From NCBI GenBank assembly GCA_964455935.1, contig CAYVZU010000004.1:3695-67694 (forward strand): a stretch of DNA of 64,000 nt, written 5' to 3'. A program made the position numbers and the translations under genes. The notes under the pieces are model-generated. The model did no database searches and was not told the DNA's origin. It was given only the letters and a program-made list of their open reading frames with translations. This DNA comes from an uncultured Fibrobacterota bacterium (GTDB lineage: Bacteria > Fibrobacterota > CAYVZU01). Positions 36,664 through 44,502 of the stretch are shown one piece after another; position 1 is the stretch's first letter, and every line of letters starts with the position of its first letter.

Positions 36664-38238
36664 ATGCAGCCCAAAATTTCCGTTATCATCGTTACCTACC
36701 AGGTTCAGGCGTACCTCGCACAGTGCCTTAATTCACTGGAAGCGGCTTGCCAGGGCCTGGCCGCGGAGGTCGTGATCGTTGATAACGCTTCCAACGATGG
36801 AACGGCCGAGTTTGTAGCGCAGTCCTATCCCAAGATTCCTCTGATCCGGAATTCCGATAACGTGGGATTTGGCAGGGCCTGCAACCAGGGGGTCCGGCGC
36901 ACAACCGGGGAATACGTCCTCTTTCTAAATCCCGATACGATGGTCCAGAACAGTTCTCTTGCGGAGCTCGCTTCTTTTCTCGATCATCATCCGGACGCCG
37001 GCATCGTGGGTCCGCGTATTCTGGGGCCCGACGGCCGGCTGCAACTGGCCTGTCGGCGCAGCTTTCCGACGCCTGCAGCGGCGCTCTTTCGTTTACTGGG
37101 ATTGAGCCGGCTTTTTCCACGGAGCCGGCGCTTGGGACGCTACAATCTCACGTTCCTCGATCCGGAAATCGAGTCGGAGGTCGATGCGGTTTCCGGTTCG
37201 TGCATGATGGTTCGTCGCAGCGCGCTGGACCGGATTGGCGGGTTTGATGAGGAATTCTTTCTCTACGGAGAAGACCTTGATCTTTGCCACCGCGTCCGAA
37301 CGGCAGGCTGGAAAATCATGTATACGCCCGCCACCCAGATTGTCCACTTCAAAGGACAAAGCGCGCGGCATAATCCGTTGCGGACCCGGCTGGCGTTTTA
37401 CAATGCCATGTTTCTCTTTTCGCGCAAACACGTGGCGGCCCGCCATTCCTTTCTGCCGCGCTGGATCCTGTATGCCGGAATCGCTTTGAATGCCGCGGCC
37501 GGGCTTCTGCGCCTGCCGGGCCGGCACCTGCCTTCCGCCGTCCTGGATCTGGCCCTTCTCAATGCGCTGCTGTTTGGCTTTCTCGAACTCTGGTTCCGTC
37601 ACGTTGGACTAGTCTCGCCCTACGTCGCCCCAAACCGCTATCTTGGGGCCGCTCATCTGACCTTCAGCCTTGTCTGGCTGGGCTGTCTGGGGGTTGGCGG
37701 AGCCTATGGAAGCCGGCGGCAGTGGGTGCTCCGGTCTTTTCGGGCAGGAATGATCGCTTCGCTGCTGACGCTTACCACCGTGTACCTCTTTCGGCAATTC
37801 GCCTTTTCGCGCGCCGCTTTTACGCTGACATCCCTTTTCAGCGTGGCGGCTCTTCCGGGGTGGCGCTGGCTGGTGGACCGGGCCGGGGCCAAGGGCCTTT
37901 TGGCGCCCGAGCATCACGTTTTGGTCGTTGGCGATTCAGCGCAAGTGGCACTGGCCATCCAATCCCTGCGCGGCCCGGCTCATTTGCGAATCAGCTATCT
38001 CGCGCCAGAGGCAGATTGCCATGTTTTCGCCGAACACCTGGGCGCGGCGTCCGCGATTCAAGACATCCTGCGCGCCCGGCGAATCGATGAACTAATCTGT
38101 TTTGAAAACGCGGTTCCCTACACGCAAATTATCGAGATCATCGCTGCCAAGCACAAGGTGCGCCCGCTGATCCGGCTGGCTTCGAAATCGCCCGATGGAC
38201 GTCTGCTGATGGCGGAACTGGGACAAACCGCGGAATAA
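36664..38238 (+). CDS. GT2 glycosyltransferase with C-terminal multi-TM domain
   Basis: ISVIIVTYQV...VIVDNASNDGT...DEEFFLYGEDLDLCHR is a GT2 rhamnosyltransferase-like catalytic domain. The C-terminal half is polytopic. Confidence 0.7.
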   Translation: MQPKISVIIVTYQVQAYLAQCLNSLEAACQGLAAEVVIVDNASNDGTAEFVAQSYPKIPLIRNSDNVGFGRACNQGVRRTTGEYVLFLNPDTMVQNSSLAELASFLDHHPDAGIVGPRILGPDGRLQLACRRSFPTPAAALFRLLGLSRLFPRSRRLGRYNLTFLDPEIESEVDAVSGSCMMVRRSALDRIGGFDEEFFLYGEDLDLCHRVRTAGWKIMYTPATQIVHFKGQSARHNPLRTRLAFYNAMFLFSRKHVAARHSFLPRWILYAGIALNAAAGLLRLPGRHLPSAVLDLALLNALLFGFLELWFRHVGLVSPYVAPNRYLGAAHLTFSLVWLGCLGVGGAYGSRRQWVLRSFRAGMIASLLTLTTVYLFRQFAFSRAAFTLTSLFSVAALPGWRWLVDRAGAKGLLAPEHHVLVVGDSAQVALAIQSLRGPAHLRISYLAPEADCHVFAEHLGAASAIQDILRARRIDELICFENAVPYTQIIEIIAAKHKVRPLIRLASKSPDGRLLMAELGQTAE

Positions 38239-38377
38239 GAAATAGTTGTCAGTTCGCGGTTCGCAGTTCTCGGTGGGGCAAGGCCGCAAAGTGATGCGCT
38301 GTTTTGCTTTGATCCTGTTCCCCTGCGGTCCCAACCGACAACTGAAAACCAAAAACGGAGGTAACCACACAGGTCCC

Positions 38378-38513
38378 CATGAAACCACAGAGAGAAATCC
38401 GAGTTAAGAATGAGAACACAGAGGGAATCCTTCTGGCGCGCACCGCGCCGGAGTGGATCTTTTCCCCCTCTGTGTCCTCTTCTCCGGCCTCAGTGTTTCT
38501 CTGTGGTTTCATG
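38378..38513. repeat. Nested imperfect palindrome (about 136 bp) intergenic element, copy A
   Basis: The outer arms are CATGAAACCACAGAGA (38378-38393) and TCTCTGTGGTTTCATG (38498-38513). The inner arms are CACAGAGGG (38417-38425) and CCCTCTGTG (38466-38474). The central hairpin is GGCGCG-cac-CGCGCC (38435-38449). Confidence 0.5.
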
Positions 38514-38557
38514 ATTTTTTCGAGAGACGTGAGTAGTTACAAACGAAGAACTCTGAA

Positions 38558-39235
38558 ATGATTGTTCTGCTTTGGGACATCGATGGAACGCTGGTTCGCA
38601 CCGGAGGGGCCGGGATGGCGGCCCTTACCAATGCCGCGGCCCGGTTCACCGGCAGGCAGGAAGACCTTTCCAGCATCAACCTGGCCGGAAGCATGGACGG
38701 AGATGTCTTTGAAAAAGTATGCGCGCCGCGCGGCATCGACGTGCAGGCCCTGACAGCCGCATACCTCGAGGAGTTGCCTTTATGCCTGGCACGGGCGAGC
38801 GGGCTTGTTCCGCCCGGCGTCCACGCGATGCTCGAAATCACGCATGCATCCGCGCAATTCTGCAATGGGCTTCTGACCGGGAACCTGCGTCAGGGCGCCG
38901 AGATGAAGCTGCGCCATTACGGGATCTGGGACTATTTCCGGTTTGGCGCGTTTGGCGACGAGGGCCGCCTGCGCGCGGATCTGGGCCCTGTGGCCATGAA
39001 GAAAGCCTCCCGCCACACCGGTCTTGCGCTTTTGCCCGAGTCGTTCTGGATCATTGGCGACACGCCGCGCGATGTGGCATGCGCGCGCGCCTGCGGGTTC
39101 CGCTGCCTGGCCGTGGGGACCGGGGTCAGCCCCGCCGAGGAAATCCGGGCGGCAGGACCGGATGCCTTCTTTCCCGATCTGTCGGATACGGAAGAAGTGA
39201 TAAAGGTGCTGAACGAAAAACCAGTTAGTAGATAG
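38558..39235 (+). CDS. HAD-superfamily hydrolase (HAD-IA, phosphatase-like)
   Basis: WDIDGTLV is motif I (DxDGT). IGDTPRDVACARACG is motif IV. Confidence 0.75.
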   Translation: MIVLLWDIDGTLVRTGGAGMAALTNAAARFTGRQEDLSSINLAGSMDGDVFEKVCAPRGIDVQALTAAYLEELPLCLARASGLVPPGVHAMLEITHASAQFCNGLLTGNLRQGAEMKLRHYGIWDYFRFGAFGDEGRLRADLGPVAMKKASRHTGLALLPESFWIIGDTPRDVACARACGFRCLAVGTGVSPAEEIRAAGPDAFFPDLSDTEEVIKVLNEKPVSR

Positions 39236-43130: not shown

Positions 43131-43164
43131 GCGTTTATGCGAGATAAGTTAGAAAAATACTACT

Positions 43165-43254
43165 CACCACAGAGACGCAGAAATTACAGAGAAAGAAGGA
43201 TCTTGGGCAAAGCTTTTCTAGGAAAAGTCTTCTTCTCTGCGATAACCTCTGTGT
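43165..43254. repeat. Nested palindrome element, copy B (related to 38378-38513)
   Basis: The arms are CACCACAGAGA...CCTCTGTGTG and CAGAGAAAGAAG...CTTCTTCTCTG. The central palindrome is CTTTTC-tag-GAAAAG. It shares the CACAGAG/CTCTGTG arm core and layered symmetry with copy A. Confidence 0.35.
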
Positions 43255-43440
43255 GCGCCGCGACTCTGCGGGATGACTTCTTTCCAACACGTGAATAGTT
43301 ACGAAAAGATAATCAATTGCGACGGGTGGGAAGTGCGGCAAACCAGTCAGAGCGCGCCTGGTCACCCATGCGCTTGGGTCATGCGGGGGCGAGGCGTCCA
43401 GCTGCTATCTCAAAATGCGTTGCATCCCTGGCGTGATGCT

Positions 43441-44502
43441 CTACATTCTCCGATACAACTCCACCAGCTTCTCCCGCGTGAGAATGTTGCGGAAGTCCGG
43501 GCCTAGTGCGTGCGTCAGCGCGCGTTCGAGCCGATAGGCCATTTCGATCATTTTATCCATTTGCTCGCTTGTAGCCTTGGCGGTCACATTCGCGGGCAGC
43601 GCGATGCGGTGCTCGGCGAGCATGGCATGAAACTTCCGCACATCGGTTCCATAAAACTCGCCAAGCTGGTTAAATACGATCGAGTTGGCCAGGCCATGGC
43701 GAATCCCAAAGACCAGGCTTAGTCCGTACGACATGGCATGGCAGACACCCACCTCGGCATTGGCCACCGAGCAACCGCCCAAATACGAGGCGACCATCAG
43801 CTCGCCGTAATTCTTTTCCCGAAGAAAAAAGCTCTCCATCATTTCTTTTGACTTTGAGGCAAATCCCTTTCCGATCTCGTTGATCAGGGACCCGTTCAAC
43901 GACTCGACACAATGAATGAAGCAGTCCATGGCCGTGTAGAATTCCTGCTCGCGCTCCACGGTTGACAGGAGTTCCGGGTCCATGATGATGGCGTCGTATA
44001 TGCTCTGGTCGCTGTTGATGCCCAGCTTTTTGACGGGACCCACCAGAACGCAGGTGCGGGTGGCTTCAGCTCCGGTCCCCGAGAGCGTGGGGACCGCCAG
44101 TTTGGCAATCGCATTCTGCCTGGGGAGATCATAGCCTTGGTAGTCGGCCGACGAGCCTTCGTTTGTGAGCATGATCGAAACGGCCTTGGCGATGTCCATG
44201 GTCGAGCCGCCGCCAATGCCCACCACAACCGCAGGCAGATCCTTTCGCTGGGTCAGAACCTGATCGCGAATGGAATCAACCTGGCCGGTCCGGGGCTCGT
44301 GGTCCGAGATGTCAGCTTCAATCACCAGATCCTTGGGTGTCGGCTTCAGGCGCGCTTTTAACCCGGTCCGGCCATGTACCGCGTCAATGATATAGAGTAC
44401 ATAGCCATCAGTTGCGGCGAAAAGCTCATGCAGAGCGGCTGGCAAATCATTGAAGGATCCGGGGCCGAAAACGATGCGGGGGACCAGTTTTGTGACTTTC
44501 AT
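43441..44502 (-). CDS. Iron-containing alcohol dehydrogenase family protein
   Basis: GGGSTMDIAK is the Fe-ADH NAD-binding motif. The C-terminal half has conserved metal-binding His residues. Confidence 0.7.
   Translation of the reverse strand: MKVTKLVPRIVFGPGSFNDLPAALHELFAATDGYVLYIIDAVHGRTGLKARLKPTPKDLVIEADISDHEPRTGQVDSIRDQVLTQRKDLPAVVVGIGGGSTMDIAKAVSIMLTNEGSSADYQGYDLPRQNAIAKLAVPTLSGTGAEATRTCVLVGPVKKLGINSDQSIYDAIIMDPELLSTVEREQEFYTAMDCFIHCVESLNGSLINEIGKGFASKSKEMMESFFLREKNYGELMVASYLGGCSVANAEVGVCHAMSYGLSLVFGIRHGLANSIVFNQLGEFYGTDVRKFHAMLAEHRIALPANVTAKATSEQMDKMIEMAYRLERALTHALGPDFRNILTREKLVELYRRM

Follow-up and report, generated by a model that had tools for sequence, protein, structure and literature searches.

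A palindrome at a glycosyltransferase-hydrolase gene junction of an uncultured Fibrobacterota bacterium is probably one copy of a dispersed, non-coding repeat built from CACAGAG heptamers

The window analysed here is a stretch of 64,000 nt from an uncultured Fibrobacterota bacterium (assembly GCA_964455935.1, contig CAYVZU010000004.1, positions 3,695 to 67,694 of the forward strand); coordinates are those of the window. A GT2 glycosyltransferase gene (36664–38238, + strand) and a HAD-family hydrolase gene (38558–39235, + strand) flank a 136-nt palindrome at 38378–38513, which is where the original prediction from this sequence had placed it. The palindrome carries inverted arrays of the heptamer CACAGAG. 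It is probably one copy of a dispersed, non-coding repeat that resembles repetitive extragenic palindromic (REP) sequences and miniature inverted-repeat transposable elements (MITEs), with its heptamer arrays serving as sites for a putative trans-acting protein.

The palindrome was confirmed in the window sequence. The outer arms, CATGAAACCACAGAGA (38378–38393) and TCTCTGTGGTTTCATG (38498–38513), are 16 nt each and, as predicted, exact reverse complements (100%). The left arm contains the cap AAACC and heptamer 1, CACAGAG, at 38386–38392; the right arm contains CTCTGTG at 38499–38505 and the cap GGTTT. The inner arms, GAGAACACAGAGGG (38412–38425, with heptamer 2, CACAGAG, at 38417–38423) and CCCTCTGTGTCCTC (38466–38479, with CTCTGTG at 38468–38474), are likewise present, but the predicted length of 9 bp was too short: they span 14 nt at 93% complementarity (one mismatch), with a perfect 10-nt core, ACACAGAGGG/CCCTCTGTGT. 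The central GC-rich hairpin, given originally as GGCGCG-cac-CGCGCC, was found within 38432–38452 as TCTGGCGCG-cac-CGCGCCGGA, and is the variable centre of this copy. Of the three repeats that had been called concentric, the two outer pairs do share a centre at 38445.5, whereas that of the central hairpin is 38442, and this offset gives a 7-nt bulge on the 3′ side of the predicted fold.

Fold prediction, proposed originally as a check, gave minimum energies of −75.1 kcal/mol for the + strand and −79.9 kcal/mol for the − strand, with z-scores of −8.45 and −8.15 respectively; none of 200 dinucleotide shuffles folded equally well. The last stem pairs are AU-rich. An A+T6 run follows directly 3′ of the stem, at the start of a right-hand tail (ATGATTTTTTCGAGAGACGTGAGTAGTTACAAACGAAGAAC..., 38514–38557, + strand) that reaches the HAD start codon. 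A consensus scan called the central hairpin plus downstream TGGATCTTTT terminator-like on the + strand. In an ENA contig from a different assembly (L001), the whole GT2-HAD intergenic region is identical to that of the window. A JGI metagenome contig from the same organism (L002, positions 1–94) stops inside the palindrome, with one mismatch at the tip; such a break is typical of short-read assemblies at hairpins. Given these two records, we take the palindrome sequence to be real and not a fold-back chimera.

Further copies were sought by scanning one genome per GTDB species (596 Gb) with a pattern consisting of the terminal 11-mers only, AAACCACAGAG-N(91–121)-CTCTGTGGTTT. At least 89 loci in about 18 phyla matched, where about one match was expected by chance (calculated by us for 22 fixed bases, 31 spacings and a pattern complementary to itself). 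The pattern did not demand additional heptamers, yet in about 90% of the matches listed each arm held at least two further CACAGAG-like heptamers. The family layout is a cap AAACC, two to four CACAGAG heptamers at an 8–9-nt period, a variable centre, and the inverse array. Among the matches listed, the spacers between heptamers are purines on both arms, and copies average 128 nt in length and −60 kcal/mol in fold energy, whichever strand is taken. The palindrome ends exactly at AAACC/GGTTT in 37 of 87 copies. Centres are unrelated between lineages and are frequently GC hairpins of their own. Copies are mainly intergenic and often lie 3–30 nt from gene ends, the genes at other loci being naive open reading frame (ORF) calls that are crude in GC-rich DNA.

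The window copy belongs to this family. It has two heptamers per arm in inverted arrays (CACAGAG at 38386 and 38417, CTCTGTG at 38468 and 38499), and at 136 nt, between GT2 and HAD and with a unique GC hairpin, it matches the family in size (about 110–145 nt), intergenic site and variable centre. Its first 17 nt match verrucomicrobial copies exactly (e.g. L072). The caps (A)ACC-ACAGAG ... CTCTGT-GGT(T) are also exact (38382–38392 and 38499–38509), which is circular because the pattern came from this copy. Heptamers 1 and 2 are 31 nt apart, compared with the family norm of 8–9 nt; other members with spaced heptamers are L009, L021, L041, L047 and L063.

According to record titles, the matches listed come from Verrucomicrobiota (including the cultured Limisphaera sp. 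4302-co), Planctomycetota, Chlamydiota, Omnitrophota, Bacteroidota/Ignavibacteria, Chlorobiota, Acidobacteriota, Nitrospirota, Chloroflexota, Bacillota, Actinomycetota, Gemmatimonadota, Abditibacteriota, Bdellovibrionota, Calditrichota, SAR324, deltaproteobacterial lineages and a few Pseudomonadota, together with one Methanosarcinales bin that is possibly mis-binned. Several matches lie on long-read contigs of 1–4 Mb, so contamination from a single source is no explanation. Two loci in bins labelled Prevotella and Lachnospiraceae (L073 and L090) share the same element and an adjacent GxxExxY gene (98% identical), which reflects either a binning error or a recent transfer. BLAST against plasmid and phage records gave no phage match and one solo array, on the Anabaena cylindrica PCC 7122 plasmid pANACY.02 (L097, 1490–1545). 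There, four CTCTGTG heptamers lie upstream of a P-type ATPase gene with no inverted partner, and other heptamer repeats (TCTGCGT) lie nearby. Rfam 15 returned no family for the window copy at E ≤ 10, just sub-threshold miRNA-precursor and hairpin noise, and for 29 family loci no family at either the gathering or the E ≤ 1 threshold, hairpin noise alone. No description of CACAGAG arrays was found in the literature by sequence or by descriptive terms; the literature on heptamer repeats concerns different words in different arrangements.

A second, degenerate copy lies in the window itself at 43166–43270, between the start of uvrA (43130, − strand) and a gene at 43441–44502 (− strand). Its left array reads CCACAGAG-ACGCAGAA-ATTACAGAG and its right array CTCTGCG..CCTCTGTG..CTCTGCGG; its fold is no longer significant (z = −1.2). 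Exactly two places in the 64 kb have at least two forward heptamers followed by at least two reverse ones, namely the palindrome and 43168–43270. Base shuffles of the window, preserving composition only, gave no such place, except for a single one in 1 of 20 runs. The left arm of the second copy is 88% identical to Limisphaera arrays over 35 nt. The right-hand tails of the two window copies (38514–38554 and 43271–43311) are identical at 27 of 41 positions, ungapped, around ACGTGARTAGTTACRAA. Either the repeat unit extends here about 45 nt past the palindrome, or one copy was duplicated with its flank. The tail motif TAGTTAC has no other occurrence in the window; being found solely beside these two copies, it was rejected as a family feature. 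Upstream of uvrA in a relative (L003, 4870–5160), an insert of about 110 nt, rich in hairpins but devoid of heptamers, lies between the two copies of an exact 18-nt direct repeat, TATAAGTCCGCAGAAAAG. A matching imperfect repeat, GATAAGTTAGAAAAA / GAATAGTTACGAAAAG, surrounds the decayed element in the window (43144–43308). Comparison of the two sequences suggests that the insertion upstream of uvrA may be old, predating the split of the window species and the L003 species.

The history of the intact copy was read from relatives. By homologues of its HAD protein, the organism groups with Opitutaceae-like Verrucomicrobiota of groundwater. The gap between GT2 and HAD is 319 nt in the window, as against 30, 20 and 19 nt and one 4-nt overlap in four relatives with an empty site (L003, L005, L006 and L007; HAD protein identity 69–73%). 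Since GT2 and HAD abut in these four, we conclude that the element arrived by insertion. The gene ends differ as well. GT2 ends in LGQTAE* in the window (38220–38238) and in LGQSLEPLA* in the four relatives, while HAD begins MIVLLWDIDG in the window and MNTDSPSIILLWDIDG in the relatives. HAD is thus about six N-terminal residues shorter in the window (MNTDSPSII to MIV, 38558–38575), and its start codon is a new ATG 44 nt 3′ of the element. From these differences, the stop codon of GT2 and the start codon of HAD are both new and come from the inserted DNA; some 320–330 nt including the element were added at this junction in this lineage, replacing both gene termini. The additional intergenic DNA to the left of the palindrome (38239–38377) is also missing in the relatives, and does not fold significantly (z = −0.8). 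Heptamer-like remnants in it, AACGGAG and CCACACAGG at 38356–38372, may represent a decayed arm.

An element was gained at a second operon junction, between PSD1 and DUF1501. In L009 the gap is 246 nt, including a 131-nt element, whereas in relatives at 83–85% identity (L104–L108) the stop and start codons are 4–5 nt apart and the element is absent. In L098 (DUF1501 95% identical) the gap reaches up to 446 nt and contains the same element with an unrelated GC-rich palindrome nested in it. This nested palindrome is about 200 nt long (L098, 880–1090; also in L099–L103), reads CGGAGCGCGGCTGTG...CACAGCCGCGCTCCG, and has CTCTGT on both sides. It may be a second kind of small element that targets the heptamer.

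Copies are dispersed within single genomes. Copies on different contigs of the same genome are 75–90% identical over 125–217 nt, with unrelated flanks beyond; in the pair L012/L092, for example, homology at 90% identity covers 183 nt and stops just beyond the element. The copies of a SAR324 genome share a non-palindromic centre. Several copies per 8 kb, sometimes in tandem, occur in Limisphaera, Longilinea, SAR324 and a Chlamydiae bin. In a Chlamydiae bin (L063, 2280–2760) there are at least three tandem units of about 158 nt, each an element plus a 43-nt spacer. In Limisphaera sp. 4302-co (L028, 1–4700), dense CACGGAG/CACAGAG arrays lie in a cassette-like layout between small accessory genes (HEPN, a putative nucleotidyltransferase, GxxExxY/PD-(D/E)XK, MarR-like and an IS110 transposase fragment). 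At two further loci (L094, 4030–4760; L044, 3088–3560) the arms enclose a whole small gene, DUF971-like and DUF1992/DnaJC28-like respectively, in place of the centre, and in L094 a right arm directly adjoins the next left arm (GGTTT|AAACC). An association with GxxExxY/PDDEXK_3 genes, hinted at by L028 and L073/L090, was rejected: it holds at 4 of about 89 loci, close to chance level, and is further weakened by two GxxExxY genes in L069 that have no adjoining arrays.

Several known systems resemble these elements in part. REP sequences, and the bacterial interspersed mosaic elements (BIMEs) and REPINs built from them, are also intergenic, non-coding, hairpin-forming and multi-copy, often lie just past stop codons, are sometimes clustered or in tandem, lack target-site duplications and may play a part in mRNA stability or termination (PMC3733652). 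However, a REP unit is 20–40 bp with its own stem-loop and a GTAG/CGTC tag, is species- or genus-specific, and is linked to a REP-associated tyrosine transposase (RAYT), whereas the CACAGAG arms are tandem heptamers with neither internal stem nor tag, and are spread over about 18 phyla and phages. The window copy contains no 20–40-nt palindromes with a GTAG/CGTC tag in inverted doublets, and no RAYT (TnpA_REP) gene recurs beside copies in the 64-kb window or the 8-kb loci.

Bacterial MITEs (Correia, Nezha and ERIC; the Porphyromonas MITE, PMC4596501) are elements of about 100–200 bp in which terminal inverted repeats enclose a non-coding interior that varies, dispersed in copies whose homology stops at the element and with filled and empty sites between relatives. 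The window copy shares their terminal inverted repeats, small size and non-coding nature, and dispersed copies with bounded homology were found in other genomes; the window itself has one intact and one decayed copy sharing the 41-nt right tail. The differences are that the CACAGAG element has no target-site duplication, that no parent insertion sequence sharing its ends turned up at the loci listed, and that its inverted repeats are internally repetitive with an arm conserved across phyla. Long terminal inverted repeats composed of short tandem repeats, with a variable middle and a snap-back hairpin, are known from eukaryotic transposons of the Foldback/Galileo type (PMC3573991), but these are kilobase-sized and linked to a P-superfamily transposase; the likeness is architectural and no homology is claimed.

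In cyanobacteria, Beggiatoaceae and Bacteroidetes, a 7-nt word is iterated two to six times in intergenic DNA (TAACTGA, PMC4679880; Nostoc, bioRxiv 10.1101/2022.06.06.494920). The TAACTGA-type word is likewise common to distant phyla, and neither a function nor a binding partner is known for it (PMC4679880). Those repeats are direct, have a contiguous 7-nt period and are oriented upstream of start codons, whereas the CACAGAG element has another word, an 8–9-nt period (31 nt in the window) inverted around a centre, and a conserved terminal cap. By the description in PMC4679880, the contiguous direct arrays before a start codon that define this class and the short tandemly repeated repetitive (STRR) sequences are absent here; the solo CTCTGTG array on the Anabaena plasmid hints at a possible link to heptamer direct repeats. 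Integron attC sites are imperfect palindromes of 57–141 nt whose outer motifs are conserved while the centre varies; they lack target duplications and lie between small accessory cassettes, as the arrays do at the Limisphaera locus L028. Here, however, R″/R′ (RYYYAAC / GTTRRRY) are unmatched, most copies are solitary between housekeeping genes and no integrase was seen nearby. The attC assignment was rejected, the window ends ATGAAAC|C and G|GTTTCAT failing the RRR/YYY positions. LexA boxes, parS, hix/gix and V(D)J recombination signal sequences were likewise rejected on reading the sequence.

Of the origins offered in the original prediction, a REP- or MITE-like repeat is supported: at least 89 loci, paralogues bounded by the element, a second copy in the window and empty sites in relatives all agree with it. 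An attenuator, also offered, found no support, with no leader-peptide logic, no alternative pairing and no such region in relatives. A protein-binding site is plausible on sequence grounds. Spacers between the heptamers are barely complementary between arms (45 of 89 positions identical compared with about 36 expected, a weak excess) while the heptamers are conserved, so the constraint lies on the word CACAGAG and not on pairing. This points to a factor that may read the sequence, rather than to pairing alone.

The proposed mechanism is that the heptamer arrays would be recognised by a putative trans-acting protein, either a recombinase- or transposase-like enzyme or a conserved nucleic-acid-binding factor, which would copy or maintain the element without target-site duplication. 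The lack of duplication makes classical DDE cut-and-paste unlikely. The centre is a lineage-specific passenger, frequently a GC hairpin. A transcript of the GT2-HAD region would form a hairpin (about −75 kcal/mol) with AUUUUUU after it, which would probably uncouple the GT2 and HAD cistrons by partial termination, by 3′-end protection or as a processing site, as in REP/BIME.

Several observations weigh against this interpretation. The empty-site relatives are distant (HAD 69–73%), so that the boundaries of the insertion are not base-exact, and about 185 nt of the extra DNA at the junction is non-palindromic. Two scans of metagenome collections with the window-specific arms gave 0 matches to a near-identical paralogue and thus lend no support to recent transposition in this genome; the one partial copy, in the JGI contig, is one base different at the contig end. 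The window copy is atypical in the 31-nt spacing of its heptamers, and a profile of 178 arms matched it in nhmmer with E = 0.01 (right) and 0.42 (left), the model being short and of low information. Family sampling is biased, the pattern having been derived from the window copy, and the taxonomy of metagenome-assembled genomes may be wrong. No target-site duplication was found: the best length was 0–1 nt in 80 of 87 family copies, flanking direct repeats were no commoner than in controls, and the flanks of the window copy (...GGTCCC | ATTTTT...) show no repeat. Nor was any mobilising enzyme, autonomous partner or recurrent neighbouring gene family found beside copies at the 89 loci listed (about 8 kb each). 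Finally, some loci carry a copy in more than one species (in one case, three or four deltaproteobacterial ones), and both this retention and the packing of copies in phage structural operons suit a selected function no worse than a purely selfish one.

The main alternative is one of function in RNA. The palindromes would be intercistronic hairpins selected in hosts and phages as 3′-end protectors, RNase III-type sites or bidirectional terminators; their CACAGAG/CUCUGUG duplexes would be read by a widespread RNA-binding or RNA-cleaving factor, and they would have spread by recombination and not by transposition. We regard this as rather unlikely; phage copies are among the observations in its favour. 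A scan of IMG/VR with a cap-free heptamer pattern gave 24 loci. The exact pattern with the AAACC cap gave 0 matches there, owing to variation of the cap in phage copies (TCACC...GGTGA) and not to their absence. On phage contigs, copies lie in structural modules, 3–15 nt after stop codons and 0–15 nt ahead of the next start. On a tailed-phage contig (L118, 4468–4571) the element lies 3 nt after the stop of a T7-like portal gene, and in an HK97-like head module (L131, 5456–5567) it takes up the whole interval from the head-closure gene to the gene after it. Placement this tight suggests that transcripts at least tolerate the hairpins and perhaps make use of them. Tailed-phage contigs of 60–70% GC were seen with several copies between structural genes, and one contig of 33.8 kb (IMGVR_UViG_3300037755_001324; L112, L120 and L127) has at least four.

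In one phage copy the sense strand folds 19 kcal/mol better, and convergent gene contexts exceed divergent ones among the bacterial copies in the matches listed (18 compared with 11); both favour a function in RNA. However, sense and antisense fold energies showed no consistent difference either in bacterial tandem contexts (n = 14, p = 0.95) or in viral contexts (n = 17, p = 0.29), and at the family level the flanks are A/T-rich in a symmetric way that does not depend on gene direction. The role in RNA stability or hairpin formation contained in the original prediction is possible in view of the tight intercistronic placement, phage structural operons included, but finds no support in either strand folding consistently better.

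The elements were also compared with intrinsic (bidirectional) terminators and phage RNase III hairpins. The likeness lies in a stable intercistronic hairpin, in the AAACC/GGTTT caps that give A- and T-tracts on both sides and, for the window copy, in the U-run (AUUUUUU) that comes after the stem on the coding strand and in a terminator-like central hairpin. Yet the last stem pairs of the window copy are AU-rich, CACAGAG stems are far longer than those of terminators, and no strand or orientation bias is seen. Phage copies end in GGTGA or GGTTC without a U-tract, so they are no canonical intrinsic terminators. Retention of elements at one locus in the deltaproteobacterial species favours selection of the RNA; the unmaintained complementarity of the spacers, the lack of any Rfam family beyond generic hairpin noise, and the relatives that do without the element at the GT2-HAD junction speak against it. 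A REP/MITE-like repeat and a selected RNA would, by analogy with REP elements, not be mutually exclusive.

Less probable again is that the arrays are a platform on double-stranded DNA, neither mobile nor acting as RNA, in which cooperative protein arrays flank a short spacer and serve regulation or chromosome organisation; we consider this distinctly improbable. Candidates would be repressors of the ribbon-helix-helix type, nucleoid proteins and partition proteins, all of which bind iterated sites of 7–9 bp. Examples of comparable binding are MetJ on its 8-bp metboxes, the omega repressor on 7-bp heptads, and ParG/ParR. The fixed word, its 8–9-bp period with two to four heptamers per inverted array, the constraint on sequence rather than pairing and the strand-symmetric arrangement would all suit such a platform. 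The neighbouring genes, however, are unrelated and form no common regulon, copies occur several per kb locally and in tandem arrays, others lie inside phage structural operons, the centres are often palindromic, which a duplex binding site does not need, and no candidate protein was identified.

That the palindrome arose by chance or as an assembly fold-back chimera, to which the single JGI contig terminating within it might point, is almost certainly wrong in view of the fold statistics (z = −8.4, no shuffle of 200 as stable), the identical sequence in the independent ENA assembly, arms that are imperfect and structured, unlike a perfect fold-back, and at least 89 homologous elements in other genomes. 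The MKPQR reading frames noted originally on both strands do exist. The ORF at 38379–38561 (+ strand, 60 aa) starts MKPQRE and that at 38249–38512 (− strand, 87 aa) starts MKPQRN, both reading ATG AAA CCA CAG AGA out of the two copies of the outer arm. They are by-products of the symmetric arm CATGAAACCACAGAGA and non-genic, their N-termini being shared because a palindromic arm is read on both strands. The idea that both encode genuine small proteins has the ATG starts and frames open over 60 and 87 codons in its favour, but there is next to no chance of it: neither ORF has a Pfam match, the start codon is not conserved in the family, an in-frame ATG of this type occurring in only 2 of 178 arms of other copies among the matches listed, centres are unrelated from copy to copy, and the region is missing from relatives.

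A broader reading is possible, if slightly doubtful: that the CACAGAG-array palindromes are an undescribed cross-phylum, phage-borne family of hairpins whose 7-nt word is read by one widespread putative protein, which would be either a new mobilising enzyme that leaves no duplication or a conserved RNA- or DNA-binding factor. Interspersed palindromic repeats such as REP, MITE and BIME are usually lineage-specific. If the broader reading is true, this family would be among very few interspersed repeats common to the PVC (Planctomycetes, Verrucomicrobia, Chlamydiae) and FCB (Fibrobacteres, Chlorobi, Bacteroidetes) groups, Acidobacteriota, Nitrospirota, Chloroflexota, Bacillota and phages. That the arm stays constant over about 18 phyla and in tailed phages implies either that they share a reader of CACAGAG arrays or that the element spreads with unusual promiscuity. 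The elements also matter in practice, as they fragment short-read assemblies (L002), generate spurious mirror ORFs in annotation and can split operons, GT2|HAD here and PSD1|DUF1501 in L009. With Limisphaera sp. 4302-co, an isolate that is in culture and has many copies, the question can be approached by experiment, and discovery of the partner could reveal a new mobilisation chemistry or a broadly conserved post-transcriptional control.

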